IMG/VR virus record: IMGVR_UViG_3300004369_000010
Span: 1-64,000 of that record
Length of the DNA: 64,000 nt
Reading direction: 5' to 3' (one strand)
Origin: a virus
Position 1 is the first letter of the stretch. Every line of letters starts with the position of its first letter. This document shows, piece after piece, positions 27,353 through 44,408 of this stretch. Made by a program: the position numbers and the translations under genes. Under the pieces are notes generated by a model. The model saw only the letters and a list, made by a program, of their open reading frames with translations, searched no databases and was not told the origin of the DNA.

Positions 27353-28906
27353 TCAGAAGGTGTTCAGAAAAGCCGTAAATTGCTCGTTACCTGCGGGATC
27401 ATACAGGGGCCATTGCTCAGCAAGCCAACTATGCGCCTCCGCATGAGTCTTGCCATAACGCTTCATATACCAGGCTTTCAGGATGAAGCCAGTTCGGCTA
27501 CGGCCAGCATGGCAATGAACAAGAACATCACGACCCTCACTCAACCAAGCATCAATAGTCTGAAGACAATCCCAAACAACCAGACCCAACTCGTGGTTGT
27601 CAACAGAGTTATCAATCAAGTAGATCTCTCGCCTAACAGGAACATGATCAATATGCCCGAATGTTCGGCACAATGACAAAACAGCCGTATCCGGGCTAAC
27701 AGTTTTTGCTCCCCCCAAATTTGACGCGTAGACTCCAGTAGCGTCCACCTTGGCAGGTAGAGCAACAGGCTCTTCCAATGTCTGAGGAACAACGTTTAAG
27801 TTGATCAGGCTTCTAGCAATATCACTTAACTTGGCGTAATTATATGCAAGCCGCGAAGGACGCTTATCCCCCTTTTCATTGAATGGAGAATCAACATGAC
27901 CATTCAGATATGTCGTGAAACGAGAAGGGATCGCTTGAATCCCGTACAGCGATCCAGCCAGCGCGCCAGCAACACACGCTACAGTATCGGTATCTCCGCC
28001 CAAGTTAATTGCTGACACGACTGCATTTTCAAATCTTTCACTGAGCGGTATACCAAATTCGGAATTTTTTACAGCCCAGTACGCTTGCGCAAGACAAACC
28101 CACGCTGAACCATTTGAACCTTCAAGCAAGGCTGAATTGGGTTCATCAGGTGAATAATCTTCTAGGATTGAATACGCAAAGGTGATCGGATCACAATCAA
28201 CCGATTCCTCAATGTAGTCGTATGTTTTAGATTGGGTCATTGCATCAATTGCGGCTTCCATCATTCCGTATGCTGAAACCGCATCTCCAACAATTGCTGA
28301 TCGAATCATGGTCGCAGCAAGACCGGCACACAGCGCTCCGCGGACGTCATAATGAGTCAAGCGCGCTTGGCGAAACGCAACAGAAAATGTGTCTGCAGCG
28401 CTGTAACGGGAACCCCAAATTCCAATTGGGCTTACTCGCATCACCGATCCGTTGCCTCCACTTGCACCACGCTTTGCGTGACCTATGGCAGCAGCGTCTA
28501 TATAGTTGTGTCCACTGTACAAAGCGCTGGCTGTAGTCGTTCCAACATCGCGCGCTGTTTTCGCCCAATGAACAAACCGGTTAAATATGTCATCAGGGCT
28601 GTAGGAAAGATTATTGGCAATCAATGATTCGGCAATACACAATGCCATCTGCGTATCATCAGTGAACTCGGCGGGTTTCCAGCCGAAACCGCCACCGCCA
28701 ACCATCTGCCCAATACCACCGTGTTTTCCTAATCCGGGGAATTTGTCATATTGGTTTGCTGGACCAAACTCAAACGGTGCGCCCAGAGCATCGCCAACAG
28801 CTTGACCCACTAAAGCGCCTATCGCAAAGGGCTTGTACTCATGTAGGTCATCATTAGTAATTCGTTTTGGGGATGGGGATTTAAATGTAGTTTCAAGTAA
28901 TGTCAT
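27353..28906 (-). CDS. ADP-ribosylglycohydrolase (DraG/ARH family) fused to a CX5R dual-specificity-type phosphatase
   Basis: GDALGAPFEF, FTDDTQM, GNGSVMR and GGDTDTVACVAGALAG ARH motifs; C-terminal VLVHCHAGRSRT P-loop. Confidence 0.92.
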   Translation of the reverse strand: MTLLETTFKSPSPKRITNDDLHEYKPFAIGALVGQAVGDALGAPFEFGPANQYDKFPGLGKHGGIGQMVGGGGFGWKPAEFTDDTQMALCIAESLIANNLSYSPDDIFNRFVHWAKTARDVGTTTASALYSGHNYIDAAAIGHAKRGASGGNGSVMRVSPIGIWGSRYSAADTFSVAFRQARLTHYDVRGALCAGLAATMIRSAIVGDAVSAYGMMEAAIDAMTQSKTYDYIEESVDCDPITFAYSILEDYSPDEPNSALLEGSNGSAWVCLAQAYWAVKNSEFGIPLSERFENAVVSAINLGGDTDTVACVAGALAGSLYGIQAIPSRFTTYLNGHVDSPFNEKGDKRPSRLAYNYAKLSDIARSLINLNVVPQTLEEPVALPAKVDATGVYASNLGGAKTVSPDTAVLSLCRTFGHIDHVPVRREIYLIDNSVDNHELGLVVWDCLQTIDAWLSEGRDVLVHCHAGRSRTGFILKAWYMKRYGKTHAEAHSWLAEQWPLYDPAGNEQFTAFLNTF

Positions 28907-28941
28907 GTCAACATGATAGTTGCGAGGACAGGCTTTGACAA
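28907..28941 (-). promoter_or_regulatory. SigmaA-type leaderless promoter for the ARH-phosphatase gene
   Basis: TTGTCA-17 bp-TATCAT, then 6 nt to ATG 28906. Confidence 0.65.
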
Positions 28942-28945
28942 CTTT

Positions 28946-30019
28946 TTAGAGATAATTATCAAACACATTTGACCAGGTAGAAGCCATATTTTTGACATCC
29001 AGCTCATTTTTTACGATTTCCAGTTGCTCTTTGGCTTCCTTGGATCGCACACCTATATGGCACAACTCCTCCAGGTGTTCCGTCCACTCTTCTTTTGTTG
29101 ACGCGAGTCTGCCGATTCCGTACTCGTCCTTTAGGCGTCTATATTCTCCGACATCTGACGCAACAAAGGGGATTCCAGCTGATGCGTATTCAATCCCTTT
29201 AATCCATGACTTGGCCCAGTTGAAAGGAATGTCGTTCAGCGGAGCTAAACCAATGTCAAACTGAAACGACAGTTTCGCGTATTTCTGGGGATGATGCATG
29301 GGTGTTTTGCTAACTTTGTCCCGAGGTATGCCAACTCGATCAGCGAACCAAACTGCTGAGTCAACATGGCCAGAGTGGTGACAGCGAAATCCCTTACTAC
29401 CTAGAACACCCTGAAGAAGTTCCAGGTCGCCTGAACGGTGAGAAGTTGATCCGACCCAACCGACAACAGGTTTTTTATTACGGAAATATCGCTTATCGAA
29501 ATCAGCGACCGTTACACAATTATGAACTAGATGAACATTTTTGCAATTGAATTCATTTTTCATCTTGTTGAACAAAAAAGGAGTAGACGATATTACCCCG
29601 TCACCCAATTGAATTATTTTTTTGTAATGTTCAATATTTTCGTCTTTATTGAAGTCGGGGTGCGTCAGTTTGTATGCATGGTTATCCTCATGTAAACCCC
29701 AGTACCAGTCATCAATATCGTTAAGAATTACTGGTCCATTTGGATTTCTGTTCTCCAGCTTTTCTACGAGCGCACCAAACATCAACCGCTGTAACACAAT
29801 AATGTCGCAGTCGTAATGGGTGTTACCGAACCAGTCAATAACGCCCATTCCCTTGTCTTTATGATGCACTAGCAAACCCGTTACAGACGGATGCTTAAGG
29901 TGTGGCCTATTTTGTTGTAGTCGAACCCAATTAGACCCACCTGGAACTGGACCCTGATCCGTTGTAAGCGTGCGCGACCAATCAGTTGAAGCGATACCAA
30001 TTTTTACTCTTTTGCCCAT
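28946..30019 (-). CDS. Glycosyltransferase (GT-B fold, GT4-like)
   Basis: VGWVGSTSH and FDIGLAPL...FNWAKSWIKGIEYASAGIPFVASDV motifs. Confidence 0.85.
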   Translation of the reverse strand: MGKRVKIGIASTDWSRTLTTDQGPVPGGSNWVRLQQNRPHLKHPSVTGLLVHHKDKGMGVIDWFGNTHYDCDIIVLQRLMFGALVEKLENRNPNGPVILNDIDDWYWGLHEDNHAYKLTHPDFNKDENIEHYKKIIQLGDGVISSTPFLFNKMKNEFNCKNVHLVHNCVTVADFDKRYFRNKKPVVGWVGSTSHRSGDLELLQGVLGSKGFRCHHSGHVDSAVWFADRVGIPRDKVSKTPMHHPQKYAKLSFQFDIGLAPLNDIPFNWAKSWIKGIEYASAGIPFVASDVGEYRRLKDEYGIGRLASTKEEWTEHLEELCHIGVRSKEAKEQLEIVKNELDVKNMASTWSNVFDNYL

Positions 30020-30084
30020 CAATTAATCTCCAAGCGTTACCAACGCTGAGACTATAGCAAATCCATGTCAAACGGTATTTGGTG

Positions 30085-30255
30085 TTAGTTATTGTTATTG
30101 CCCTGGCGGCCACGCAAGCGACGACCAACTCCGCGTGAGCCACGAGCCAAAGCCCTCAACATTGCCGCCAAAGCACGACGCCACCACGACGGTCGACGAC
30201 CATCACGTGCATCTGGGCTAATTTCCTCATCAGGCAAGTTATTAGGGGTGGGCAT
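30085..30255 (-). CDS. Small Arg-rich basic protein (56 aa, not in the ORF track)
   Basis: GGAGAAG RBS then MPTPNNLPDEEISPDARDGRRPSWWRRALAAMLRALARGSRGVGRRLRGRQGNNNN. Confidence 0.6.
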   Translation of the reverse strand: MPTPNNLPDEEISPDARDGRRPSWWRRALAAMLRALARGSRGVGRRLRGRQGNNNN

Positions 30256-30306
30256 TTCTTCTCCGTCCGACTGAACAAGAATAGCATCTCAGCACCAACA
30301 AGAATT

Positions 30307-30867
30307 TTACCGATCTGGATTGGGTGGCCTTTCAATGAATCCCGCCTGCTCGGTAAGGCTGGCTGGGGCTTCAACCGGAACCCATGCTTGTGAGTACTTG
30401 TGTTGGGCAACTTTCCGGTTCTTAATGAGAGTGCCATCAATCATTAGATCAATTTCATCATTCCTCATGACAAGCATCCTCTTTAAATCGGTTTCCGCAT
30501 AGCGGCCCGACATAATGATGTCCCTAAAAATGCGAGACATCCTTTTCGCCTGAGTTGCCCCCTTGGCCCTATTCAGGCGGAGATGCAGAAGCATCGCATC
30601 AATATCGCCACAGTCTTCATAGATCACTGGAACTAAGCCCTTGTATGTTTTTCTAATGGACTTTATTGAACCCGCAATCTCCCAGCGATAGTGACCATCA
30701 ATGATGACACCCTTGGACTTCTGAACCACAATAGGTTGCAGCCATCCATAGTCGTCCATGGAGCGTGCGAGTACCTCCAAGTCGGGGGCCAACACATATG
30801 ATGCCCGCCACGAAGCAGGCTTTAAAGTTGAGCCATCAACCCACACAATATTTTCATTCGGCTTCAC
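30307..30867 (-). CDS. ParB/Srx-like domain protein (IbrB-like)
   Basis: YGWLQPIVV...IIDGHYRW...RLNRAKG; adjacent to the IbrA-like gene. Confidence 0.8.
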   Translation of the reverse strand: MKPNENIVWVDGSTLKPASWRASYVLAPDLEVLARSMDDYGWLQPIVVQKSKGVIIDGHYRWEIAGSIKSIRKTYKGLVPVIYEDCGDIDAMLLHLRLNRAKGATQAKRMSRIFRDIIMSGRYAETDLKRMLVMRNDEIDLMIDGTLIKNRKVAQHKYSQAWVPVEAPASLTEQAGFIERPPNPDR

Positions 30868-30869
30868 AT

Positions 30870-32033
30870 TTACCTCAAATCATCAACGGAATCAAGGGCA
30901 TCCAAACTAGCCATTTCCTGTGCCTCTTCCATCTGAATCGTATACGCACGAGTCTTCGGCCCAATCGGATTGACAGAAGTGATATTAAACTCGTTTAACA
31001 AAATATTTCTAATCAGCCAATGTATCGGATACGAATTCGGATCCTTGGCATGCTTCTTCCTAAACTCCGCTGCGAATGCCATAGCCCGTTTCTTTAAGCC
31101 AGGCGTTAGCACATTATCGTCAATGCACAGACGTACGCCCTTCCACCCATCACGAGCGTACATCTTGATCATTTGTTCAACGTCAAACTCCGCCCAGCAT
31201 CTCCTCTGCGCATCAATTTGCGGAAAGCATTCGTACAGTCGGTCATAAAACTCAGGCTCCGTAGCAACAACATCACCAATACGGCGAATGGCAACAGCGT
31301 GCAAAGGAATACCCACTCTGGTATTTGAGCCAGTAATCGCTGCGAGGTCATAGTACTCGCAGTATGAGGCGTTGTGTTCTTCCGTGATGAACTTGAGAAC
31401 ATCGTCAGTCGTCCAGTCATAAATCACCTTCGCAAATCTCAGCGGAATTGACTTCTTCATACGAAACGGTACATTGATGTAGTTCTCATGCAACTTTTGA
31501 ACACACGACCGATATCGGATCATTGACTCATTTGCTCTAACGCCAGTAATAAACGCCGTTCTACCCTTCTTGCCCTGCATTGTGTAATAGTCAATTGATT
31601 CGGGAATTGCTTGGGACGGATTTAAACCGAAATGTTCAGCCGTAATCGCCCAATGTGGCATATCTCGATAAAGACGCCCCTCTTTTGCTCGTTTCGGAGA
31701 CCAGAGAAGACAATACTCCCTCCTACCCAGCACCCAGATTTCTTGGCCCTGAGGAAGGCAATACCACTCCATATCAACCCAGTCGTAGTTTCGCACCTCC
31801 TCAATAAATGACAACACCGCTGGAGAAACCATCTCTTCATCACGGAAAATAACCTTCACAGGTCCGAGGTTCCGTTCCTCGTGAATTTCCTTGGCTAGGT
31901 ACAAGATCGCTGTTGAATCTTTGCCTCCAGAAAACTGCACGCAAACGGTATCAAATGTGTCGTAAACATGGCGCATTCGCTCGCGCGCCGCATCAACACA
32001 GTTGATATCAAGAAACATACGTTGCCGAGTCAT
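30870..32033 (-). CDS. PAPS reductase-fold protein (IbrA/DUF3440-like)
   Basis: FSGGKDS PP-loop, ITGVRANESMIR and IYDWTTDDV motifs. Confidence 0.85.
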   Translation of the reverse strand: MTRQRMFLDINCVDAARERMRHVYDTFDTVCVQFSGGKDSTAILYLAKEIHEERNLGPVKVIFRDEEMVSPAVLSFIEEVRNYDWVDMEWYCLPQGQEIWVLGRREYCLLWSPKRAKEGRLYRDMPHWAITAEHFGLNPSQAIPESIDYYTMQGKKGRTAFITGVRANESMIRYRSCVQKLHENYINVPFRMKKSIPLRFAKVIYDWTTDDVLKFITEEHNASYCEYYDLAAITGSNTRVGIPLHAVAIRRIGDVVATEPEFYDRLYECFPQIDAQRRCWAEFDVEQMIKMYARDGWKGVRLCIDDNVLTPGLKKRAMAFAAEFRKKHAKDPNSYPIHWLIRNILLNEFNITSVNPIGPKTRAYTIQMEEAQEMASLDALDSVDDLR

Positions 32034-32581
32034 AAGGCTTCTTTGGGCATCAAATTTTTGTGGATTTTACGTAGCCGCTCTAGACGCTCAACACGAATGT
32101 TTTTCTTGATGTTAATATGCGATCCCGGTTTTGCTCCGAGCATCTCAGCAATTTCTGTTTTTTTGAAACCAATATCAACTAGATCCTTCACAAGTTGCTT
32201 GGCTTCGCCTGCTGGAACCCACGAATACGGGTGCGGATCAATTGCAGCAACACCAAGTATGCGGTCACTTGTATTTTTACGAATCTGGTCGCACTTGCCC
32301 TGTCGAATTCGTAGAAGCCTAGATACAGCAACTCCTGAGCGTTCAGAAATCGTTCGTAACCCGATCTTCTTTTGCCCCAAAAACAGTAAGTGAATTCTGG
32401 CATTCCTAGCATTTACCATTCGTACGGGTCGAGCCTCAATGCCTAATTTTTCTCTACGCCGTTCGCGAGACATGTTCAATTCATACACTCGGTGCGCCTC
32501 TTTGCACTCATTACACCTACATCCACTTGCATAGGTTGAATGTCTGCCATGAGTGACAGGCTTCCGACTATTTGCTGTCAT
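32030..32581 (-). CDS. Zn-motif + HTH DNA-binding protein
   Basis: HGRHSTYASGCRCNEC; GLRTISERSGV and KKTEIAEMLG HTH-like segments. Confidence 0.65.
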   Translation of the reverse strand: MTANSRKPVTHGRHSTYASGCRCNECKEAHRVYELNMSRERRREKLGIEARPVRMVNARNARIHLLFLGQKKIGLRTISERSGVAVSRLLRIRQGKCDQIRKNTSDRILGVAAIDPHPYSWVPAGEAKQLVKDLVDIGFKKTEIAEMLGAKPGSHINIKKNIRVERLERLRKIHKNLMPKEAL

Positions 32582-32590
32582 ATTTAATCC

Positions 32591-33361
32591 TCAGAAGTCA
32601 GCGTGCGCGTCAATAAAATTCATAAGCCGTTGCGCTGTTGTATCACCATCAATTGATGGCTCCGTTCTCAACCAACGAATAAACGAATACCATTTAGCCT
32701 GCTGGTCAGCATCATCAAAAACCAAAGAGTATTGAACGACGGCTTTAGTTGATCCAGACGCACCAATACCAGTGCTTCCCGTCGCCGCAACAGAACGAGC
32801 GTCAACATTCATTGATGGAACAATCTTCGCCCCATCTTCAGTCTGCTCTACAGCAATGTTTTGAATTGGTGCGGAATCTGGGTTAACAATCACGGGCGCT
32901 ACATATCCCGACTCTTCAAGCGAGTCCAATCTGCTTGCCTGAATATCCAACGCTGCTAGCTCAAACTCATCCCACTGAAGATCAACGAGCAGATCTGAAT
33001 ACGACTCAACTACCGTACCCAGCATGTCGTTCAGAAGTTGAGGGTCGGTATAACCCAACTCAGTCGTGCGATTATCTGCCAGAGCAAAAGCTACAGCCTC
33101 CTGTTCGGACGAATCAAAAATAACAGCAGCTATCTTTGACCATCCCAACTGCCTTGCAGCCCGCACCTGATGATTGCCCGCAATGACCGTATAGGTCCCA
33201 TCAGTATTATCCCGAACTACAATTGGTCGAAGTTGTCCGAATTGCTCATAGGACGCAACAATTGCATCAACATTGCCCTTTCGAGGGTTGCCCTCAAGAT
33301 GAACCAGTTTGTTTAAATCTATTGTTAACGCCTCTAGCGATTTATCAATTTTTTCCGTCAT
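32591..33361 (-). CDS. ParB N-terminal domain protein
   Basis: NPRKGNV...FGQLRPIVV...VIAGNHQVRAA...ALADNRT. Confidence 0.85.
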   Translation of the reverse strand: MTEKIDKSLEALTIDLNKLVHLEGNPRKGNVDAIVASYEQFGQLRPIVVRDNTDGTYTVIAGNHQVRAARQLGWSKIAAVIFDSSEQEAVAFALADNRTTELGYTDPQLLNDMLGTVVESYSDLLVDLQWDEFELAALDIQASRLDSLEESGYVAPVIVNPDSAPIQNIAVEQTEDGAKIVPSMNVDARSVAATGSTGIGASGSTKAVVQYSLVFDDADQQAKWYSFIRWLRTEPSIDGDTTAQRLMNFIDAHADF

Positions 33362-33362
33362 G

Positions 33363-33830
33363 TCATACTCCTAGTTCCATGTCCGAAACTTCAACAATGT
33401 CAACTTTAGCGCTGAACAGAAACTCTCGCACCCTGTTCCAATCCTTGTAGGACGAGTCCGAAAAGCACACCACTTTACGAACGCCAGAACTCGCAATTTG
33501 TTTAGCACATCCAAAACATGGAGGTCCGTTGACTATCAATGTCGCCCCTGCTCTTTGGGCAGGATCAGTCCACAATAGAGCATTAGCCTCTGCGTGCTGA
33601 GCGATGCAATTATCGTAAACACTACCGTTAGCCGAATTCATACTTAACCTTGGGCAGAAACCTTCCGAGCAATGGCCCATCCCTGGGGGCGAACCGTTAT
33701 AGCCGAAACCAATTACTCGCCCAGTTTCTTCCAAAACAACAGCGGCATATTGCTTTTTGGAACAGGTTGAAAACTGATGGGCCATCACCGGCAACACCTT
33801 CAACCAATTCCGTTCACGACGCAAAATCAT
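33363..33830 (-). CDS. dCMP deaminase-like protein
   Basis: GYNGSPPG, HAEANAL and PPCFGCAK zinc deaminase motifs. Confidence 0.88.
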   Translation of the reverse strand: MILRRERNWLKVLPVMAHQFSTCSKKQYAAVVLEETGRVIGFGYNGSPPGMGHCSEGFCPRLSMNSANGSVYDNCIAQHAEANALLWTDPAQRAGATLIVNGPPCFGCAKQIASSGVRKVVCFSDSSYKDWNRVREFLFSAKVDIVEVSDMELGV

Positions 33831-34171
33831 GAACTTACTTGCTGTCTCACATTTGCCGCCAATGTCCGCAACGCATCAATACTCGTCCTCAATGAAGACA
33901 ACTTCTCGCGTTTTGCTTTCACCAAGGCCTCGGACACCTTCCAAGCAAAAATTTCGCTCTCTAACTTATAATCCGACCAGGCTTCCCGTTCCCGAATTGA
34001 CCCCTTCGCCGACAAGTACTCTTTCGCCCAAGCCGACTTATAGGTCGCTTCCTTGTTCGCTGCATCCTGTGCAAGAACCTCAAAGGTTTCGGTTTCATCT
34101 TCTAACATGCCCGTCAAGCGAAGAATTTCTTCTTCAATCTCAACTTGGCTAATAGGTGCGGATCGACGCAT
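33827..34171 (-). CDS. Hypothetical coiled-coil protein
   Basis: Coupled ORF with a GGAG RBS. Confidence 0.6.
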   Translation of the reverse strand: MRRSAPISQVEIEEEILRLTGMLEDETETFEVLAQDAANKEATYKSAWAKEYLSAKGSIREREAWSDYKLESEIFAWKVSEALVKAKREKLSSLRTSIDALRTLAANVRQQVSS

Positions 34172-34190
34172 ACTTCTCCCTCAAACTTAG

Positions 34191-34418
34191 TTAGTTGATA
34201 ATTTTAAAAATTGTTGACCACAACATTGGCCACTCAGTTGAATGTCTCACCAAGATTCGTCGATGCCACGTTGGGTTAGAACCCTCTTCTAGAACCCTCA
34301 TACGAAGTTCATCAATCAGCAACTCTAATTCGTTGACCTTCTCCCGAGTCATACAAAGTTCTTCCTCCAACCGCATCCGCGACACTTGAAGGTCACCAAT
34401 AATTGCATCATGTTCCAT
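34191..34418 (-). CDS. Hypothetical protein
   Basis: Likely start MEHDAII, overlapping the end of the RuvC-like gene. Confidence 0.5.
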   Translation of the reverse strand: MEHDAIIGDLQVSRMRLEEELCMTREKVNELELLIDELRMRVLEEGSNPTWHRRILVRHSTEWPMLWSTIFKIIN

Positions 34419-34935
34419 AGCGTTCCTCCACAACCGACCAGTCAACTTTGTCCAAGGCCAACCTGTTACCACTTGGCCACTGAAACCGTTCCGTTCCCAT
34501 TAAGCATCGCCCCATTTCCTCCAAAATCCAGGCATCACACATATCATCTGCACCGGAACCTGACCAAACAATTCCCGTTCTGGCTGATACAGCAGAAAGC
34601 ACCTCGGCCTTACTTGAGTTCCCCTTCCCCGTAGCAAACTTCGCCCTAGCCGTAGGGGCCACCTCGGTAAACGGGATCCCTGCACGCCACAAACTCACCC
34701 TCACAACACCACCAAGTTCTCCGATGGAATGCGCTTGACTATTGCGACTGGAAAAAGAGTAACCCTCCACGACAACTGCTGGATTCTCGGCCTGCCTTAC
34801 GACACCTAATATTTCTTCGGACATGATATGAAGCCGTTCAGCTCCCTTTTTGTTAGTTGAGATACAGGTAGTTGTATCGTTACCCGAAATGCCCGTTGAT
34901 GTCAACGACAAATCCAAACCAAAAACTGTAATCAC
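34408..34935 (-). CDS. ruvC: RuvC-like Holliday junction resolvase
   Basis: FGLDLSLTSTG, VVVEGY, KFATGKGNSSKAEV and DDMCDA catalytic motifs. Confidence 0.85.
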   Translation of the reverse strand: MITVFGLDLSLTSTGISGNDTTTCISTNKKGAERLHIMSEEILGVVRQAENPAVVVEGYSFSSRNSQAHSIGELGGVVRVSLWRAGIPFTEVAPTARAKFATGKGNSSKAEVLSAVSARTGIVWSGSGADDMCDAWILEEMGRCLMGTERFQWPSGNRLALDKVDWSVVEERYGT

Positions 34936-35633
34936 TACGAATCCTTCAAAAAGTTCAGAACATGTTTGGGGCGACGACGCCTATTGAATGCCCAAACTTC
35001 TTTCCATCTTTGGGGTCCCGTAATTACATGAAGTTGCCCATATCGCTCTCTTTCGCTAATTAGTGGAGTCTTCTCAATTTCACCAACGCTGAACCGAGTC
35101 TCAGAAGGATGGTAAAACTTCACCTGATAAATAGGTGAGTCTTGAGATATCCGCACCCACTGGTTAAACTCAACCCTAAACGCATACGATGTTCCGCGAA
35201 ACCACTCGTAAATATTGAACTGACCTCGAATGGGTTCTGGATTGGTCTGACCCTGGGCGGATTGAACCGTCATCACAACATCAGGATCATCCGAAATAAA
35301 TATCCAAAACGGCAACAAACCTAACTGAACAATCCCATGTTCAATGTCTGCGGTATTCAGCACTCTGCCCAAAGAGGCTGAAGGGAGGGAGCAGTTTTCC
35401 TCATCAAACTCCACATACATATGCCCGTGATCGTCTTGCACCACCCTAAAGCGCAAATCGTAATTAACCGAAATGTTAAACGCTGACAATACATAGTCAT
35501 TGAATGCTGGACATCGCCGCGCATCCCCATCAACAGGGATCGTTTCTCTCACGGGGTGAAAAGCGGGATGAGCCGCCAATGTGGCCCCAATGTCTGTTGA
35601 GCCTCCCGCTGCACAGTAACCGACCCTAATCAT
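34935..35633 (-). CDS. Hypothetical protein
   Basis: Coupled ORF; RRCPAFNDY motif. Confidence 0.55.
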   Translation of the reverse strand: MIRVGYCAAGGSTDIGATLAAHPAFHPVRETIPVDGDARRCPAFNDYVLSAFNISVNYDLRFRVVQDDHGHMYVEFDEENCSLPSASLGRVLNTADIEHGIVQLGLLPFWIFISDDPDVVMTVQSAQGQTNPEPIRGQFNIYEWFRGTSYAFRVEFNQWVRISQDSPIYQVKFYHPSETRFSVGEIEKTPLISERERYGQLHVITGPQRWKEVWAFNRRRRPKHVLNFLKDS

Positions 35634-36177: not shown

Positions 36178-36677
36178 CTGAAATCCTCCGGTGTGATATT
36201 TTCAAAGTCCCAGTGGCCATCTAGCGTAGACCAAAGAGCCCTGTCAATGACGGTGTCTTCCAGATCATACTCGTACATGAGTTCTTTGTGTCGCCGAATC
36301 GCCCTTTGGAGGGTGAGCAATTTTGTCATTGCATCATCTTCAATTTCAACACCTGTGTCAATCATCAAAGTTACTTGATTTAGCCGATTTTCAACATGGA
36401 AACGAAAACGATCAATTTTCTTTTTCCTCATTTCGTAACTAGCCAATGATTCGGTGAGTAGGATACTGCCCCCGTCAATGGCGGAGTATCGTTCCGTATC
36501 CATCTCCGCATCAGCCTCAATTCGCTCCAACTGCCCATCCAGGTTCTCAATTAGAGCAAGAAGCGCCTGTTGCCATCTGTGCCAGTTTGTTTTCTGCAAC
36601 AAAAACGCTCGACTATCTCTCGTTGCCCTGTTCTTGACTTCTTCGGCAACCAATTTGGCAAAAGCGTCATCATTCAT
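36174..36677 (-). CDS. Hypothetical protein
   Basis: Likely start MNDDAFAK just after the exonuclease stop. Confidence 0.55.
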   Translation of the reverse strand: MNDDAFAKLVAEEVKNRATRDSRAFLLQKTNWHRWQQALLALIENLDGQLERIEADAEMDTERYSAIDGGSILLTESLASYEMRKKKIDRFRFHVENRLNQVTLMIDTGVEIEDDAMTKLLTLQRAIRRHKELMYEYDLEDTVIDRALWSTLDGHWDFENITPEDFS

Positions 36678-36684
36678 GGCTGGC

Positions 36685-37452
36685 TCACTTACCCCACGCT
36701 GGGCATGCTGATTTGAACGCACACCAATTGCAAAGCGTTGATTTGACTGGCTCAAAATTTCCTGTCTCACAGCGATGATCTATTCCTTCTTTTGTTTTAA
36801 GAATTACCTGTGTGGCATCTTCTATTCGTTTTGTTGTGACTTGCCTAGATAATACGACCGGCTTTTTAAGGTATATGAGATCAAGTCGTTTTGCTTCACC
36901 TATACCCATGCTTAGCATCAGCGCGGCATAAACCGAAAGTTGGAAAAACTTATCCTCTTCCCACTTAGCCGCTGGAACCTTGCCCGTTTTGTAGTCGGAA
37001 ATAACAATTTTCCCATCAGTTTCATCAACTGTAAACCTATCAATGAAACCCTTGAGTTGAACTCCTTCTACCGACCCATTAAGTTCAAACTCAATGCCGT
37101 CTAATTCTGTTTCAGTAGGCTTTTCTACTTTCCACAAGTTTTCAATACAAAACCAAGCGTTCCACCGAAAATTGTTAAAAGCAGTCGGATGGACATAGCC
37201 TTCTACCTCCATTACATACTTGTCATCCCAGATTTTTCTAGCAATGTTTCGTGCCGTCTGCTGATCGCGCATATCTGGATCAGTTGCATATAAAACTTCT
37301 AGCACTTCATGAACGAAATTTCCAAGCAAACTTGCCTCGCTGGGCGGCTCTGGAAGTCGATCAATACGCGAATATTTAAACCGCAATGGACACTGTTTGA
37401 AGGTGTTGATAGACGACGGCGACAAATATTCAGGCGCTTTAAGTGCTGACAC
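36685..37452 (-). CDS. RecB/Cas4-like PD-(D/E)XK exonuclease
   Basis: LSPSSI..FKQCPL, GNFVHEVLE, GFIDR, ISDYKTGK, QLSVYA and CNWCAFKSAC. Confidence 0.9.
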   Translation of the reverse strand: MSALKAPEYLSPSSINTFKQCPLRFKYSRIDRLPEPPSEASLLGNFVHEVLEVLYATDPDMRDQQTARNIARKIWDDKYVMEVEGYVHPTAFNNFRWNAWFCIENLWKVEKPTETELDGIEFELNGSVEGVQLKGFIDRFTVDETDGKIVISDYKTGKVPAAKWEEDKFFQLSVYAALMLSMGIGEAKRLDLIYLKKPVVLSRQVTTKRIEDATQVILKTKEGIDHRCETGNFEPVKSTLCNWCAFKSACPAWGK

Positions 37453-38138
37453 TACTCAGACACCTCTTCATTTTCAATGATTTCCATTCCACCCAGAATC
37501 AACCGAGTCGTTTCAATCGTAACCGCCTCCAAGTCCGTCAATGTCCACTCGCCAACATTCTTCGGCACTGGACGGCCTCCGCTGTATGACAACCAAAATT
37601 GCTTAAGTTTGGGTTTGTCATCATCGGGAAGTTCGTTTCGGAGTTCCATAAACCGCTCGTATGCGCTGGTGACAGCAGGATCCACGGGGAGAGGAGCAGA
37701 TTCCATCGCTAACTCAATTTCCATCGCTTCAATATCCCGAGCCAAATAAAGACCTACACCGAACTGTTGGAGGGCTTTCTTCGTAGCATCCGAAACAGCG
37801 CCCTTGAACTCGTCACCCAAATCAACGATCTCATTGTCTTTACGAGAACGCTTGATTTTTTGCCCACCAAAACCATCATGAATGACATGACGACCATCAA
37901 TATGCGCGCTAACACGAACATGAGCAACAACCCAGTCGGGATCTGACTGATCTCGTTCGCAACGAAGAATCTCGCTTGACCACCCACCGACACCAAGAAC
38001 ACGGTTCATTCGATTCGTTACTTCCGCAATTGGAAGGTATGTAAGTGATGCTCCACCCTTACTGACCGTGCGCTCCATCTCCTGAGGAAACGGCTCACTC
38101 AAACGCTCATACACCTGATCCATGACTTTTCCTTTCAC
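37452..38138 (-). CDS. Rad52/Rad22-family (Sak-like) ssDNA annealing protein
   Basis: LTYLPIAEVTNRMNRVLG...KGAVSDATKKALQQFGVGLYL; paired with the exonuclease. Confidence 0.85.
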   Translation of the reverse strand: MKGKVMDQVYERLSEPFPQEMERTVSKGGASLTYLPIAEVTNRMNRVLGVGGWSSEILRCERDQSDPDWVVAHVRVSAHIDGRHVIHDGFGGQKIKRSRKDNEIVDLGDEFKGAVSDATKKALQQFGVGLYLARDIEAMEIELAMESAPLPVDPAVTSAYERFMELRNELPDDDKPKLKQFWLSYSGGRPVPKNVGEWTLTDLEAVTIETTRLILGGMEIIENEEVSE

Positions 38139-38638
38139 TTAGCCTTCCGCAGGCTGATTTTGGGTACAGATTCGCCAGACTCACAATAATCATCGGCATC
38201 TACGCCAATTTCTCGCAACGTTGTTACTTTCCAATACGAAATTCCTGCGAACTGAAGTAGTTTCGTAATCATCTCTTTTGTTGACAACTTGATTTCTCCA
38301 GTATCAAGATCAACAGCCATACGCTCAATGCGCTCTGCGACAACCTCGGCAATCTCAGCATGACGCCAAGCTTTTCGTGACTTGTCATAAATCTTTTCAA
38401 CGACGGATCCATCTTCTCCAACAATCGGATCTCTGTCCGCCAGTAGTTGAATCAGAATCTTTTCCATTTCGCCATACGCCTCAGCCAGGTCAGATTTCAG
38501 GTGGCTGATTGCGATCAGAAGTTCACAAGCTGCTTTTTCGCTTAATGATTCGTCTTCTTTAAGGGCTGAAACTCGATCATAAAAGTCAAGCACTTGCTTA
38601 TTGAAATCAATAACCCAATCGGGTAGGTTTTCTTGCAA
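38135..38638 (-). CDS. Hypothetical protein
   Basis: Coupled ORF with a GGAG RBS. Confidence 0.6.
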   Translation of the reverse strand: MQENLPDWVIDFNKQVLDFYDRVSALKEDESLSEKAACELLIAISHLKSDLAEAYGEMEKILIQLLADRDPIVGEDGSVVEKIYDKSRKAWRHAEIAEVVAERIERMAVDLDTGEIKLSTKEMITKLLQFAGISYWKVTTLREIGVDADDYCESGESVPKISLRKAK

Positions 38639-38678
38639 CAGTATCTCCTGACCTAAACGGGTAGTAACCCCGGTTTTG

Positions 38679-39983
38679 TCAGACGATAATAGCCGCCCGC
38701 TTTCTCTGAGGCAACCCTAGACCAGCAAGAAAAGTAAAGGCACTAACCGCCGAGTCAACTTGGTCATCATGATTAGCGGCTTCTGGGAAGGAAGCAAACT
38801 CATCCATCCATTCCGTCAACCAATGCCCTCTAACGACTCGCACATTTCCGTTCGCAACCGCTGCCGCAAAAGGACGCGCCCTGGTTAGCTTGTCTCCAGT
38901 GGATCGGATACCACTGAAATCGTACCCTGGTACGACATAACGGGCGTATTGGTCGCAAAGCGCCTTACCAGATGATCCTGGTTCCTGTTCCATTCGAATA
39001 GAAACAGCCGGTCCATCTTCGTAGGCGGTTTGGGCTATTAGTTGTTCAACTTTGTCACCTTTAGCACGTATTTTTTTTACATCTAAGATATAAGCAATTC
39101 CTTGGTCAAACAGCATGAGGGTCCCGACAGTCCAGTCAGGATCAGGATTGCTCTGAGAAGGTTCAGTGGCCGCCAAGTCCCAAAACCGTACAATTCGGGC
39201 AGAAGAACTGATCTGGGGAACCTCGTGACCGTCAATGATGATAAAAGACTCCCGCTCGAAGAGCGATCCAAGTGTCGTTGACCACCAATCACCTTCCTCT
39301 AGACGGCGGCGCTCAACCGGATCCAAGGCTTGCAGGGACTGTCGATAGGATTCAGCGTCAATACCTGGGTTGTCGGTCAGTTTAGAGGGTACAAAAATTC
39401 TGCCGGTGGAATGTCCTTCCACGATGAAGCGTTGTCGAACCCAGTTGGGGGCTGGGTTTGAGGCAGCCCTCATGCGCAGTGGCACCTTGGCTAACGGTCC
39501 GGATGCTGGACGGCGAAGTCGAGAGAATAGGTAACGATAATCGTTCTCCCGTATTTCTGTAACTTCATCCATGCCTATGAATTGAAATTCAGCACCCTTA
39601 TATCGAAGATAGTCCTGGCTGTTGTTCAAATATCCGAATGAAATACGAGCTCCCGATGGAAACATGGCTGTATAATTATTCGCGTTCCATCTAATATCAT
39701 CATACTGAGCAACCCACGACTGAAAGCGATCCATGATCGCTCCAGGGAGTGCCAGGTCTGCATAAGTGCGACGGAAAAGAATAGCCGAATAACCAGGCGT
39801 GTCAACAAACTGCAATGCCGCCATAAGGAGAGCACTTGACTTGCCACCACCAGCGGCACCCCCAAACAAAGCCTCCAAAGAATTTGTCCTCAGAAACACT
39901 TTTTGAGTGACGGATGCTTCCTCTGGACAAAATAAAGGTTTCTTGGGTTCCAGAAATTCTAAAACCTGTTTCCAGTCAGCCAT
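38679..39983 (-). CDS. terL: Terminase large subunit
   Basis: GGAAGGGKS Walker A, FIGMDEVTE Walker B, ASNP, nuclease RFWDLAAT and HDDQVDSA. Confidence 0.93.
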   Translation of the reverse strand: MADWKQVLEFLEPKKPLFCPEEASVTQKVFLRTNSLEALFGGAAGGGKSSALLMAALQFVDTPGYSAILFRRTYADLALPGAIMDRFQSWVAQYDDIRWNANNYTAMFPSGARISFGYLNNSQDYLRYKGAEFQFIGMDEVTEIRENDYRYLFSRLRRPASGPLAKVPLRMRAASNPAPNWVRQRFIVEGHSTGRIFVPSKLTDNPGIDAESYRQSLQALDPVERRRLEEGDWWSTTLGSLFERESFIIIDGHEVPQISSSARIVRFWDLAATEPSQSNPDPDWTVGTLMLFDQGIAYILDVKKIRAKGDKVEQLIAQTAYEDGPAVSIRMEQEPGSSGKALCDQYARYVVPGYDFSGIRSTGDKLTRARPFAAAVANGNVRVVRGHWLTEWMDEFASFPEAANHDDQVDSAVSAFTFLAGLGLPQRKRAAIIV

Positions 39984-40039
39984 AAGCCCTCCGGTTTACA
40001 CAATTAGGTTAGTATAAATCTAGAAAGATGAGGTAGACG

Positions 40040-40240
40040 TTGAAACGACTGGCAAATCGGACACGAAAAACAGCTTTTTGGATCAAAAATCGCAATTGGC
40101 GAGGTATAACCGCCAATATCATGATGCTTTCATTTATAATTTTTACATCGGTTGGTGCGGCTTTGCTGTTGCCTGCCGCAGGTTTTATAACCGCAGGCAT
40201 TGCTTGTGGCATGTTCGGCTACCTACTGGGGTCTGATTAA
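40040..40240 (+). CDS. Small membrane protein upstream of the portal
   Basis: Two hydrophobic helices; stop lies 2 nt before the portal ATG. Confidence 0.55.
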   Translation: MKRLANRTRKTAFWIKNRNWRGITANIMMLSFIIFTSVGAALLLPAAGFITAGIACGMFGYLLGSD

Positions 40241-40242
40241 AG

Positions 40243-42483
40243 ATGGCATGGAACTCTCGGCAGACCAAGAACCTCGGTAGCGACACCAGTTCAAAAGCGA
40301 TGCCACTAGGTCCTGGAGCGCCAGTATCCGTAAACACGGGTCTAGCAGGTCGTGCCTATCGTGACTCCTGGGATATTGAACGCGCATATCGCGAGGGTAT
40401 GCAAAAGGTTGTCTGGGTAAATCGATGCATTGATGCAATCGCTGGAAACCAAGCCCGACTTCCAATGATCCTCCGTAAGGACAACAGCCCAAACGGTCAA
40501 GTAATAGATCGCAAACATGCCCTACTAGACATCTTCAACTCAAAAGCCAATATTGGCGAAAACGCTTTCGTCTTCCGATACAGAGTTTCCAGCCAGTTAC
40601 TTATGTCATCTCGTGGCGTTTTTATTGAAAAAGTCTACGGACGCGATGGTGGAATCATCGCACTAAACCTGCTACCACCACAGCACACATCGCCAATCCC
40701 AGATCCAAAGCGTTTCGTTGCTGGATACCAGGTTGATCTCCCCTCTGGACACAAGCAAATCGTCAAAGCCGAAGATGTGGTGTGGATTCGTCGTCCACAC
40801 CCGTTAGATCCGTACCTATCTCTTACGCCCATGGAATCAGCGGGTATTGCAATTGAGATTGAAAACCTGGCTCGGATCTACAACCGAAACTTCCTTCTCA
40901 ACGATGGTCGGCCTGGAGGACTACTCGTTCTCCGAGGTGAAATTGACGACGACGATAAAGACGAACTCAAGAGCCGTTTTAGAGGAAACCTCAATCGGGC
41001 TGGTTCCGTATCGGTTATCTCATCAGACGACGGCGCTGATTTCATTGACACCGCTTCCAACCCCAGAGATGCCGCCTATGTACAAATGCGTCAACTCACC
41101 AAGGAAGAAATCCTCGCAGCTTTCGGTGTACCCGAATCGGTAATTGGCAACGCATCTGGTCGAACATTCTCAAACGCCAATGAAGAAATGCGTGTCTTTT
41201 GGATGGAAACCATGATGCCCCATCTGGAGCCAATCGCGCGAGCCTATGATGAACTTGACCCCAAGTACTACATTGATTTCGATACCAGTGATGTTCCAAT
41301 CCTGATCATGGCCAAACAGGAGCGGGAACGCTACCTCATGGACGAATTCAACAATGGTCTAATTTCAGCAAACGAATATCGTGAAGGTAGCGGGCGCAAA
41401 ACGCTTGACTCCGAAATTGCCGATCAACTACTCAATAGCCCACAATTGGTTCCAATTGCCAACACAGAAAAACCTTTCAGTATTGAAGAGCAAACCCCCA
41501 TTGCTGAGGCAGGAGCAATACCTGGCGGGCCAGATCAAATGCCCCCCAGAGGAGAACAAGCACCTCCCCCTGGCCCTGGCGGTGAACCAGGTGGCCCAGG
41601 AACAGCGCCTGGCGGTAGCCCCACCTCACCAGCCGCCGAAACACCCGCTACCGCAATTGAACCAGTTCCCGAAGGTCAACTATCTGCTGGCTACGGTGGC
41701 ATAGAAACCAAAACTGCTGATACAGCGGCTTACTACGATGAATGGGACACGAAGGCCGAACAAAGCGTAGATCGTTGGACAGAGATCCTGGATGCGTCAC
41801 TTGAACGAATCTTTCAGCGTCAGCAACGGGTAGTTCTTGAAAAGGCTTTTGGCGCAAAAGCACGCAAGGCGATGAAGGACAACTCACTCACTGTTGAAAC
41901 AGTCTTTGACATTGACGCATGGAATCGTCAGTTGCGAGATGACATCACGCCAGTGATCAACGGAATCATCGCTGATGCGTCCGAAAATGTTTCGTTAGAA
42001 GCCAAAATGGACTCAACGCCCGATCCAGTTGAAGCGGCTGAATATGTTGAGTCTCAAATGACTCGCATGGAAAAAGTGAACGAAACCACCAAGGAAGAAA
42101 TCTCTGCAGCTCTTCTCGTCGCTATGGCGCTCGGCGCAGAGGAAGACGAACAGAGGAACAGTCTTCTTCGAGCAGCGCTAGCAGCAATCTTCGCCAACCT
42201 TCTCGGTAAGAGGCGCCGCATTATTGCCGAACACGAATCATCAACGGCTTTCAATGCTGGAACATATCTTGCTGGTCGGCAAATTGGCTCTTTGTCAAAG
42301 CGTTGGGTTAGCCGACGAGATGAACGTGTACGCGACGCTCACCGTGTTCTAAACGGCCAAAAGGTTGGATTGACAGAAACCTTCAATGTTGGTGGTTTTC
42401 CTCTCCGCTTTCCTGGTGATCCCTTGGCTCCGCCGTCGCTCACCATCAACTGCCGTTGCCGTCTACGGTTCACTAATGACTAA
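40243..42483 (+). CDS. Portal protein (HK97-type) fused to a MuF (Mu gpF) head morphogenesis domain
   Basis: Portal motifs FLLNDGRPGG, EILAAFGVPESVIG, ISANEYR; Pro/Gly linker; MuF motifs KRWVSRRDERVRDAH...FPGDP...INCRC. Confidence 0.9.
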   Translation: MAWNSRQTKNLGSDTSSKAMPLGPGAPVSVNTGLAGRAYRDSWDIERAYREGMQKVVWVNRCIDAIAGNQARLPMILRKDNSPNGQVIDRKHALLDIFNSKANIGENAFVFRYRVSSQLLMSSRGVFIEKVYGRDGGIIALNLLPPQHTSPIPDPKRFVAGYQVDLPSGHKQIVKAEDVVWIRRPHPLDPYLSLTPMESAGIAIEIENLARIYNRNFLLNDGRPGGLLVLRGEIDDDDKDELKSRFRGNLNRAGSVSVISSDDGADFIDTASNPRDAAYVQMRQLTKEEILAAFGVPESVIGNASGRTFSNANEEMRVFWMETMMPHLEPIARAYDELDPKYYIDFDTSDVPILIMAKQERERYLMDEFNNGLISANEYREGSGRKTLDSEIADQLLNSPQLVPIANTEKPFSIEEQTPIAEAGAIPGGPDQMPPRGEQAPPPGPGGEPGGPGTAPGGSPTSPAAETPATAIEPVPEGQLSAGYGGIETKTADTAAYYDEWDTKAEQSVDRWTEILDASLERIFQRQQRVVLEKAFGAKARKAMKDNSLTVETVFDIDAWNRQLRDDITPVINGIIADASENVSLEAKMDSTPDPVEAAEYVESQMTRMEKVNETTKEEISAALLVAMALGAEEDEQRNSLLRAALAAIFANLLGKRRRIIAEHESSTAFNAGTYLAGRQIGSLSKRWVSRRDERVRDAHRVLNGQKVGLTETFNVGGFPLRFPGDPLAPPSLTINCRCRLRFTND

Positions 42484-44408
42484 TGGCCCCACGCAGACCT
42501 CTTCGTATAGAGCCGTACAATAACGATGCGGTAGATGCCGACAATGACGGCATCGTCCAAGAAGACACAGCCTGGGAACGCCCAGCAGGAACTCGCCTCC
42601 TTGATGCGCTAGGTCAAGCAATCCGCAACGGGATGACTTCCCAAAGTCGCCCATCGGGAATACGAGTCGTTGACCGAGACGGTAATCCTGTGGCCTACAA
42701 GCCACGAGCAACCCCGGTTGGCAAAACACCCAAACCTAGAAGTCCGCTTGGCCCCACATTGGGTGATAGGCAAAGAACTCTGGGAGAAATGATCCCGTCA
42801 CTAGGACAAACCATCGGCACTCTTGAAGATCGACGCAAGCCGAAACCAATCAGAGTCAGTCAGGAAGATGCCAAACCGCGTCAGGCTGAACCCCCAAGAA
42901 AGTTCACTGTTCCAACATTTACCGCGCCTCTGCTTGGCGAGCAACTCATGTCCAAACCTGGATTCACATCGAAAGATCTGTTTGATAAGGACACTGGACG
43001 GTACATCAAGGAACGACGCAAACTTCATCGTTCAATTGTTGGGTTTTATCTGCAGAAGGCAAAGCCCAGATCTCCAGAATCGCAAGAAGAAAAAACTGTT
43101 TGGTTTTTGGGTGGTGGCGCTGGTTCAGGTAAATCTAGCGCGATCAAGAGCGGCGCTATTGGTGTCCCGTCCGACCTGCTTCGCGTAGATCCAGACGAAA
43201 TAAAAGATTTCATTCCCGAATATCGCACATGGCTATCTGGTGGCGACGGACGAGCGGCAGAGTTCGTCCACGAAGAATCAAAACACATTTTTGAGCACAC
43301 CGTTCACGGTTTGGTGCAGCTCAACGCCGACTTTGTGTATGACACAACCGGTAATGGTTCTTACGACAAAATGGCAAAGAAGGTTCAAGACCTTCGGCGC
43401 AACGGCCATGTCATCAAAGCCCGATATATGACCATCAGCATTGACGAAGCGATTCGACGCGCAGAACTCCGTGAACAAACGACTGGCCGTCGTGTTCCAC
43501 GACATCAAATCATTCACAACCACCAAGAAGTATCCACCAATGTGATTCGTGGTATTGCTGACGGACTATTTGATGAACTTGAGTTATACGATAACGACGG
43601 ATCGCAACCAACAAAGATCCTTGAAGTTAAGAATGGCAAAGTCAAGATCCTTGACCCGCAAGCCGTTGACCGATTCATGGCGAAATCCCCTTCGTTGAGT
43701 CGATCCCCTGGCAAGACTCCAGCAGGAGTTCATGAAGATCTTGAAAAAGGAAAGTCAGCTTCCAATGTTCTGGGACAAACTTCCAGGGTCGATGCCAGAA
43801 CCGCGTGGGCTGGATACCTTGCAGATGACTACAAAGAAATGAACTATGTGCTTCGTGAAGGTGGAGACGGTCTATCCGACGAGGAATACAACGAGGTAGC
43901 ACAGAAAATCAACGATTTTGATGAGTACTTTGACCACGCAAGTTTTTCACTGATCCAGCCTGTGAAGGTGTACAGAGGAACTCAGGAATACCTTTCGGAT
44001 GACATTGATGTTTCTGAACTTGCCCCTGGTGAGGTGTACAAACTTTTATCCGCTCCTGAGATCGGAACCAAGTTTCGCGAAGATGCCTACTCCTCGGCTA
44101 CTGAAAGTCTTGATATTGCCGAAGACTTTGCACTCGGGAAGGCCGATGTGGAATCCCTGAGCTATTCGGAAGGGCCATCTATTCCCGTTGTGATGGAAAT
44201 TAATATTCCTCCCGGTCTCAGGATGCTTCCAGGAACCACATATGAGAAAGAAGTGATCCTTGAGCGGGAAACACGGTTCAAAGTTGTTGACTACATCACG
44301 CAATACACAGAAAGTGGCGATTCCTATCAGTTGTTGAAAGTTGTTGCAATTCCTCCTCGCAAAAAGCAACAGCCACTAGAACTAGCGGAGATTGATGATG
44401 ACTACTAA
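42483..44408 (+). CDS. Zeta-toxin-like P-loop kinase fused to an R-S-E ADP-ribosyltransferase (VIP2/Alt-like)
   Basis: Kinase motifs GGGAGSGKS, VDPDEIK, VYDTTG, TGRRVP; ART motifs VKVYRG, AYSSAT, YEKEVILERETRFKV; TAATG-coupled to portal-MuF. Confidence 0.85.
   Translation: MAPRRPLRIEPYNNDAVDADNDGIVQEDTAWERPAGTRLLDALGQAIRNGMTSQSRPSGIRVVDRDGNPVAYKPRATPVGKTPKPRSPLGPTLGDRQRTLGEMIPSLGQTIGTLEDRRKPKPIRVSQEDAKPRQAEPPRKFTVPTFTAPLLGEQLMSKPGFTSKDLFDKDTGRYIKERRKLHRSIVGFYLQKAKPRSPESQEEKTVWFLGGGAGSGKSSAIKSGAIGVPSDLLRVDPDEIKDFIPEYRTWLSGGDGRAAEFVHEESKHIFEHTVHGLVQLNADFVYDTTGNGSYDKMAKKVQDLRRNGHVIKARYMTISIDEAIRRAELREQTTGRRVPRHQIIHNHQEVSTNVIRGIADGLFDELELYDNDGSQPTKILEVKNGKVKILDPQAVDRFMAKSPSLSRSPGKTPAGVHEDLEKGKSASNVLGQTSRVDARTAWAGYLADDYKEMNYVLREGGDGLSDEEYNEVAQKINDFDEYFDHASFSLIQPVKVYRGTQEYLSDDIDVSELAPGEVYKLLSAPEIGTKFREDAYSSATESLDIAEDFALGKADVESLSYSEGPSIPVVMEINIPPGLRMLPGTTYEKEVILERETRFKVVDYITQYTESGDSYQLLKVVAIPPRKKQQPLELAEIDDDY

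Follow-up and report, generated by a model that had tools for sequence, protein, structure and literature searches.

Here we describe two composite enzymes encoded in a 64,000-bp stretch of viral DNA (hereafter the window, positions 1 to 64,000 of the IMG/VR record IMGVR_UViG_3300004369_000010). The first, which we call the writer, is a phage effector of known type with a rare combination of a kinase and an ADP-ribosyltransferase (ART) and an undescribed N-terminal module. The second, the eraser, joins an ADP-ribosylhydrolase (ARH) to a phosphatase and represents a phage clade within a family known from bacteria. A functional pairing of the two is plausible. As the best explanation of the locus as a whole we tentatively propose a head-associated writer effector accompanied by an immunity-like eraser, a reading that falls somewhat short of an even chance.

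Reversible ADP-ribosylation is central to the conflict between phages and their hosts, and the control that phages exert over the ARTs they inject is poorly known. The locus offers a testable pair, made up of a putatively head-associated ART and a phage-clade homologue of an enzyme with which bacteria, by prediction, counter viral ARTs. Should the eraser act on the marks of its own phage, the logic of effector plus immunity would extend from adjacent MuF-ART/ARH modules to genes that lie dispersed in large environmental phages.

The window makes up the initial 64 kb of one viral contig of 72,255 bp (the whole record, G000), which CheckV estimates to be about 49 % complete. This record is collinear with two relatives, G001 (IMG/VR, 137 kb, 92 % complete) and G003 (86 kb, 58 % complete), and we therefore take it for a fragment of a large environmental tailed phage rather than a prophage in a bacterial chromosome.

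A kinase-ART fusion and an ARH-phosphatase fusion

The writer is a protein of 641 amino acids (42483..44408, plus strand) in which the N-terminal module is followed by a P-loop kinase domain of the zeta toxin/AvrRxo1 fold (residues ~158-404, 42954..43694, +; Pfam and VIA-align) and an R-S-ExE ART domain with R498, S538 and E588-x-E590 (residues ~418-628, 43734..44366, +; Pfam, VIA-align and conservation). The open reading frame (ORF) had been singled out in a preliminary description made from the sequence alone, and the motifs quoted there (GGGAGSGKS, DPDEIK, DTTG, YRG, SSA and EKE) are all present in the translation. The proposed fusion is likewise borne out, as Pfam Zeta_toxin matches residues 193-373 (E 5e-24, 85.3 bits against a curated cut-off of 22.3) and ADPrib_exo_Tox residues 439-619 (E 2.2e-12, 47.2 bits against 23.4). 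Among the relatives, G210, G211, K217, D236 and D238 of the kinase are at least 90 % conserved, and so are R498, G499, S538, E588 and E590 of the ART domain in 10 sequences. GGGAGSGKS and DPDEIK align with GGQPGSGKT and DNDTFK of the zeta toxin, corresponding to Walker A and the catalytic DxD.

The AlphaFold model of the writer is confident for residues ~140-635. By VIA-align, its kinase is closest to AvrRxo1 (4z8q_A, Z 19.9, root-mean-square deviation (rmsd) 3.4 over 238 aligned residues), zeta (1gvn_B, Z 18.4) and PezT (2p5t_B, Z 17.2), and because these scores are nearly tied the fold fixes neither the subfamily nor the substrate class. Zeta toxins phosphorylate UDP-GlcNAc and AvrRxo1 phosphorylates NAD+, in each case at a sugar 3′-OH. 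The writer shares the fold, Walker A and DxD with zeta, PezT and AvrRxo1 but carries them inside a larger effector, and no epsilon/PezA or Arc1-type antitoxin gene was recognized for its kinase. The best ART matches are CPILE-a (Z 16.2), C2-I (15.5), Vis (15.5) and VIP2 (15.4), with Certhrax also at Z 15-16, and the domain also matches the toxin halves of two solved ART-ARH pairs, from Listeria (8za7_B, Z 15.2) and Tre1 (6drh_B, Z 12.3). Alt-like ARTs give a weak PHROG match to the writer (5e-4). The ExE motif goes with arginine as the acceptor of ADP-ribose, and by this motif the writer would modify arginine. In an exhaustive search 3803 proteins matched the writer at E<=0.001, almost always by way of the kinase; relatives with both kinase and ART are rare, amounting to about 10 in 5.8 billion clustered proteins.

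The eraser (517 amino acids, 27353..28906, minus strand) consists of an ARH domain of the DraG/Tri1 type (residues ~19-370, 27797..28852, −; Pfam, PDB profile search and VIA-align) fused to a Cys-based dual-specificity phosphatase domain with D432, C465 and R471 (residues ~377-517, 27356..27778, −; Pfam and VIA-align). Here too the ORF contains the quoted motifs TDDTQM, DTDT and HCHAGRSR, and the proposed fusion of an ARH with a CX5R phosphatase stands: ADP_ribosyl_GH matches residues 30-329 (E 3.7e-63, 214 bits) and DSPc residues 449-499 (E 1.1e-9, 38.7 bits against a cut-off of 33.5), so that all four domains of writer and eraser score far above chance and past their curated cut-offs. E46, D83, D84, D305, D307, D432, C465 and R471 are invariant in 54 sequences, and by its position, ~30 residues upstream of the P-loop, D432 would be the general acid of the phosphatase. 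We take the eraser for a DraG/Tri1-type hydrolase, catalytically intact, that is linked to a Cys-phosphatase.

The AlphaFold model of the eraser is confident (pLDDT, the predicted local distance difference test, 93; pTM, the predicted template modeling score, 0.93). Its ARH domain has its best PDB profile match in Tri1 (6dre_A, 4.3e-43), and Tri1 is also the closest fold by VIA-align (Z 37.1, rmsd 2.1, 282 aligned residues, 33 % identity), followed by ARH3 (35.9), DraG (34.5), Lmo0067 (8za7_A, 34.1) and ARH1 (31.5). Tri1 hydrolyzes arginine-linked ADP-ribose and serves as the immunity protein against Tre1 (PMC8120803). The phosphatase domain matches MKP-2 (3ezz_A, Z 18.5), DUSP5 (18.4), PTPMT1 (15.7) and a baculovirus RNA 5′-phosphatase (15.6), a fold that does not fix the substrate. 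The chemistries of the two proteins thus match as had been proposed, with the R-S-ExE triad in the ART and an ARH closest to Tri1 and DraG, both removers of arginine-linked ADP-ribose.

The eraser had also been credited with a host-type promoter and a terminator of its own. Candidate elements of both kinds are present: a promoter-like TTGTCA-17-TATCAT (28913..28941, −) ends 6 nt before the eraser ATG, and a GC-rich hairpin with a weak T tail (27304..27325, −) lies between the eraser stop codon and the TTG start of the next gene. Such sites are, however, no more frequent in the 19.5-kb region than in shuffled sequence, with 24 promoter-like sites against 23.7 in shuffles and 25 terminator-like sites against 19.7, the latter also counted as no more frequent than chance. 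Since the promoter-like element ends so close to the ATG, the eraser mRNA would be leaderless or nearly so; leaderless transcripts are common in Actinomycetota. The neighbors of the eraser in the window are genes for a glycosyltransferase and a head-tail adaptor, and no regulator adjoins it.

The writer's neighborhood and its N-terminal module

The gene directly before the writer encodes a portal protein fused to a MuF domain (746 amino acids, 40243..42483, +; Pfam, PHROG and sequence), with Pfam matches to Phage_portal (2.1e-50) and, at residues 644-741, to Phage_Mu_F (1.6e-9), and a PHROG portal match at 1.1e-103. Its TAA stop and the writer ATG overlap by one base (TAATG) with no Shine-Dalgarno sequence evident at the writer start, which suggests that the translation of the two is coupled. 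The MuF domain sits in this upstream protein; Pfam gave no MuF match in the 641-aa protein itself.

Relatives of the kinase domain point the same way. Among 62 longer proteins sampled from the best 150, 16 carry Phage_Mu_F, and there are 6 hits in portal families and 2 in minor capsid protein 2. In a reference phage collection the writer matches just one protein, a 'minor head protein' of 1499 aa from cyanophage PSS2, present as three copies of this one phage's record. G003 encodes the kinase (734 aa) and the ART (298 aa) separately, with one gene on either side of the major capsid gene. Against this, the writer homologue of G001 (1344 aa) follows a primase-helicase gene and a helix-turn-helix gene, with the portal 60 kb off. 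Thus, of the earlier suggestion that the writer is coupled to portal-MuF and may be injected, the coupling and the link to the head are plausible from the TAATG overlap, the MuF-bearing relatives (16 of 62) and the capsid-flanking genes of G003, whereas adjacency to the portal is not kept in G001. We regard a head-associated, possibly injected writer as plausible.

Downstream of the writer, the next ORF (44777-45232) has a weak DUF732 match and no homologue in the relatives, and no immunity gene directly follows. Two adjoining DNA methyltransferase genes lie beyond it (45294-46855, +), in a synteny that is kept in G001 though the upstream neighbor of the writer differs there.

Effectors of this kind have precedents. 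Three papers (Iyer 2017, PMC5512222; Iyer 2022, PMC9503650; Jamet 2017, PMC5576092) report MuF fusions of zeta-like kinases and of Alt/VIP2-type ARTs; like the writer, these MuF toxins and polyvalent head effectors are enzymatic effectors tied to portal or MuF, and their delivery with the DNA has been proposed. The present locus differs in that MuF belongs to the preceding portal polypeptide while the effector starts with another N-terminal module, and in that kinase and ART lie in one chain without an immunity gene directly downstream. T4 Alt, cited in PMC5512222 and PMC9503650, is a head-packaged, injected, arginine-specific R-S-E ART and in this resembles the proposed writer, but Alt has no kinase domain and T4 no ARH eraser. 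Our literature search returned no work joining MuF, zeta toxin and ADP-ribosyltransferase, and none on Lmo0066/Lmo0067.

The N-terminal module (residues ~1-77, 42483..42713, +), with the core ...EPYN-DA-DADNDGIVQE-TAWERPAGT..., belongs to no Pfam family; a search of the Atlas gave no usable match, and the module is of low confidence in the AlphaFold 2 model. With 44-67 % identity it recurs in proteins whose C-terminal parts are quite different, where it lies at the N-terminus or close to it. Among 21 such proteins Pfam finds 3 with a PI3/PI4-kinase-like domain, 2 with an RNase_T exonuclease, 2 with DUF3626 and 1 with DUF7178; the other 13 have no Pfam match, and in one of these a HExxH-like metalloprotease motif can be read by eye. 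Longer relatives hold the module twice, around a hydrophobic segment. Within the window a second, weaker copy of the core lies in a lysine-rich ORF of 112 amino acids (51283..51621, +; tblastn E 0.009, E 7e-8 with our own hidden Markov model (HMM) of the module), and the same HMM finds a further copy in a 1600-aa ORF directly after the G003 portal as well as matches in ORFs of G001 and of another related record, G007. In this phage group the module looks like the invariant portion, serving delivery, of a polymorphic family of effectors, and it may be a packaging or ejection signal.

The 1600-aa ORF of G003 (G003:27754-32553) is one of two giant ORFs between the portal and capsid genes, the other coding for 2154 amino acids (L003 2495-8959); one of them has the module motif, and together they are probably an array of polyvalent head proteins.

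A possible pairing of writer and eraser and the competing explanations

Phages repeatedly combine a head-associated ART with an ARH, in a design that resembles Tre1-Tri1. We compared 46 other ARH-bearing IMG/VR records (from 58 loci, 8 short ones were left out and 4 of the remaining 50 dropped). The PF03496 ART family occurs in 21 of the 46, and in 19 of these 21 the ART and ARH matches are less than 0.5 kb apart; the argument is one of adjacency, not of enrichment over ARH-free records. Those of the 46 that reach 350 kb or more have no PF03496 ART. Pfam annotation of five pairs (L016, L023, L041, L048 and L057, on phage or provirus contigs of 20-70 kb) reveals two-gene modules in which a MuF-ART fusion of 780-873 amino acids (four cases) or an ART gene following a portal gene (one case) adjoins a stand-alone ARH of 271-322 amino acids. 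An ART-ARG pair (ARG, ADP-ribosylglycohydrolase) in Aeromonas phages is mentioned by Iyer 2022 (PMC9503650), and the main text of Jamet 2017 (PMC5576092) has 0 occurrences of glycohydrolase immunity. A dispersed example exists too: in Streptomyces phage Bogota, gp9 (1186 aa), encoded after portal and protease genes, has a C-terminus homologous to the writer ART (hhalign 97 %; by profile comparison only, as Pfam gives no domain at E<=0.001), and the ARH gene lies 43 kb downstream, near the other genome end.

Outside phages, the closest parallels are Tre1-Tri1 of Serratia proteamaculans (6DRE/6DRH) and the Listeria pair 8ZA7, in which an R-S-E ART is neutralized by a DraG-like Arg-ADP-ribose hydrolase. 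Both halves rank among the best fold matches of the two phage proteins. These pairs are adjacent secretion-system genes without kinase or phosphatase, whereas the phage genes are 13.5 kb apart, and Tri1 plugs its toxin with an N-terminal extension that the phage eraser lacks.

The sequence of events that we prefer can be outlined as follows. The writer would probably be translated together with portal-MuF and packaged, to reach the cell along with the DNA. There its ART would modify host proteins using NAD+, and its kinase, working on its own, would take a sugar nucleotide (UDP-GlcNAc or NAD+, for instance) as substrate. The eraser, made from the phage genome, would remove from arginine the ADP-ribose that the ART of this phage had attached. 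This would shorten the period over which the effector acts, or shield the cell during production of new effector for packaging. The analysis shows the domains, catalytic residues, folds, gene order and distribution; we infer packaging, targets, arginine specificity and the eraser's action on the writer's marks, as well as any link of phosphatase to kinase. By analogy with the many adjacent phage ART-ARH pairs, we rank this action first among the possible roles of the eraser, although its chance stays under one half.

The preliminary description had called for a test of co-occurrence across related phages. Scans of viral contigs with writer or eraser as single proteins yielded nothing, and relatives were found by alignment-based scans. 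Writer and eraser occur together in the window and in G001, where the eraser adjoins the same adaptor and tail genes. Two fragments under one metagenome number, G002 and G004, are each collinear with the window, and one has the writer, the other the eraser. G006 and G007 have an eraser; no portal match, kinase or ART was found in them, which makes them uninformative either way, and G005, which has no portal match, is uninformative about the writer. A metagenome scan gave only four loci, none informative for co-occurrence. The pattern is compatible with linkage: the window and G001 fit the expectation and the 58 %-complete G003 speaks against it, with very few records that can be scored and all of them of one lineage. 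A complex prediction for the ART (residues 425-641) with the full ARH-phosphatase scored 0.00 and, run without controls, counts neither way.

Several observations weigh against an eraser dedicated to the writer. G003 has kinase and ART, yet its syntenic eraser site is empty and its 86 kb contain no eraser; it also lacks the replication module that houses the alternative eraser site described below. Unlike the adjacent pairs, writer and eraser lie on opposite strands with 13.5 kb between them, and the ~60-residue toxin-plugging extension of Tri1 is missing (residues 19-370 of the model align with Tri1 63-360). Of the 19 adjacent pairs in other phages, 15 are near-identical relatives and only the other four are distinct. 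The co-occurrence comes from a single lineage, for which shared ancestry is an equally good explanation. Finally, the ARH-phosphatase fusion is overwhelmingly bacterial and widespread without a kinase or ART.

Among 8000 candidates scored for this fusion, 2371 match at E<=0.001, and species-representative genomes contain 535 ARH-phosphatase loci, of which the best 80 are almost all from Actinomycetota, on contigs of up to 1.28 Mb and with 34-44 % identity. Within 6 kb of the bacterial loci, no structural or packaging gene is held in common with the phage; two weak matches (L099, L123) are non-structural. In the one locus whose neighborhood was annotated with Pfam, L081 from Ilumatobacteraceae, the fusion stands beside an NrtR-type Nudix regulator and a VWA protein, with no ART. 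ARG-centered systems coupled to phosphatases are predicted to be a host defense against viral ADP-ribosylation (Iyer 2022, PMC9503650, section 3.8), and the ARG systems with rhodanese/protein tyrosine phosphatase described there have the same ARH-phosphatase fusion, 36-44 % identical in actinobacterial genomes, and the same NrtR/VWA neighbors. The earlier caveat that such fusions also occur alone is thereby strongly upheld, by a large and mainly bacterial family that is already in print. The bacterial systems are chromosomal, regulated (with a Nudix or WYL regulator and a chaperone close by), without a coupled ART and predicted to be anti-viral; the phage eraser, in contrast, comes with an ART of its own, falls into a separate clade and has no adjoining regulator.

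Nearly as likely as the self-directed role is an eraser unrelated to the writer, namely a counter-defense or exclusion enzyme captured from a host ARG-phosphatase system, which would clear phage or host proteins of ADP-ribose added by host ART defenses or by the injected ARTs of competing phages. The mainly actinobacterial, chromosomal distribution of the family and the predicted anti-viral function of the NrtR/VWA context speak for it, as do the gap in G003, the separation of the two genes and the existence of two eraser sites independent of the writer. In the window, G001 and G004 the eraser lies between ParB-like/glycosyltransferase genes and the head-tail adaptor, and in G006 (56722-58119) and G007 (8844-10178) it lies inside the replication module; since these phages are related, the eraser has moved within the lineage. 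The phylogeny argues otherwise. In a quick IQ-TREE reconstruction with midpoint rooting only and long branches, the five eraser copies of phage records group with their five closest metagenome relatives on one side of a well-supported branch (SH-like approximate likelihood ratio test, SH-aLRT, 98), against 59 other sequences, of which 54 come from bacterial genome contigs and 5 are metagenome proteins. Thus this phage group seems to have carried the eraser, as a mobile gene, for a long time and not to have captured it recently. The only nearly complete relative (G001) keeps both genes, adjacent head-ART and ARH pairs are common in other phages, and we know of no host ART defense against this phage.

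We consider it distinctly unlikely that the eraser acts on small molecules instead, its ARH cleaving a free ADP-ribose (ADPR) derivative and its phosphatase removing a sugar phosphate, for example from ADPR-1″-phosphate, 3′-NADP or UDP-GlcNAc-3-phosphate, so as to protect the NAD+ pool or disarm immune signals. NAD+-centered defense and phage phosphatases acting on ADPR-1″-phosphate are documented in bioRxiv 10.64898/2026.01.28.702374, and coupled phosphatases have been proposed to process released ADP-ribose further (PMC9503650, section 3.8). These reports would fit such a role. So would the kinase, whose nearest structure, AvrRxo1, is an NAD kinase. But the ARH domain is nearest to the protein-Arg-ADPr hydrolases Tri1 and DraG, and the phosphatase is nearer to protein dual-specificity phosphatases (Z ~18) than to PTPMT1 and the RNA 5′-phosphatase (~15.6), in a fold that leaves the substrate open. 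Nor was a Macro domain found in the 72-kb record, ~49 % complete (NARP genes were not looked for).

The preliminary description had gone further and read the locus as a mirror-image switch, timed and reversible, in which kinase and ART write two marks that phosphatase and ARH erase. The symmetry has one argument in its favor: the sole lineage with a kinase on its ART also has a phosphatase on its ARH, and the five adjacent pairs of other phages annotated with Pfam show neither domain. This is a single lineage (n=1), however, and such a switch appears unlikely. Because the fusion is widespread in bacteria without a kinase (and in L081 without an ART), the phosphatase needs no kinase partner. 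The kinase, for its part, is joined to many unrelated effector domains, with an ART in 4 of the 62 sampled relatives and Nudix, 2H, Acb1, pyrophosphatase, SAM lyase and GNAT domains as single cases, which fits independent activities delivered together rather than a two-step mark. The promoter evidence is at chance level.

A serial chemistry would be a long shot. In this scheme the kinase would act either on NAD+ ahead of the transfer or on ADP-ribose already attached to protein, and so create a phospho-ADP-ribosyl mark. Such a mark might resist plain ARH or macro erasers, with phage and bacterial ARH-phosphatase fusions as its dedicated erasers, an idea of equally low probability that, if true, would account for the frequent coupling of bacterial ARG systems to phosphatases. 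A link between the kinase and phosphatase halves would point to a new modified form of ADP-ribosylation and assign a function to the numerous ARH-phosphatase fusions of bacteria. Without such a link, the locus would simply be one more ordinary case of polyvalent effectors in a phage.

The phage record and its other genes

The two proteins of the window are also listed with a longest contig of 124,825 bp, and P0006 with one of 122,867 bp. Together with the estimated completeness, the 124,825-bp contig suggests that the window is part of a phage of ~125-140 kb. From 48 kb on, GC content rises from ~0.49 to ~0.55. A prophage reading prompted by this rise was rejected, as the 72-kb record is viral and collinear with G001 across that point. 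A tyrosine integrase is present in G003, whereas a search of the 72-kb record (49 % complete) and of G001 (92 %) gave none. The sole tRNA is a tRNA-Ile with anticodon TAT (50570-50645, −).

A long reading frame (1-4575, −; more than 1525 amino acids) extends beyond the left border of the window. The large terminase (36685-39983, −) is divergent from the portal (40243, +), and its strand carries, in order, the terminase, Rad52-like and PD-(D/E)XK recombination genes and then the tail genes, an unusual arrangement of modules that is conserved in G001 and G003. On the same strand, a gene for a PAPS-reductase-domain protein adjoins one for a weak ParB_N protein (30307-32033, −), a conserved pair that may be involved in DNA modification. 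Along with the terminase, the PAPS-reductase-domain protein is the best-conserved gene product, with 86 % identity in G001 and 74 % in G003.

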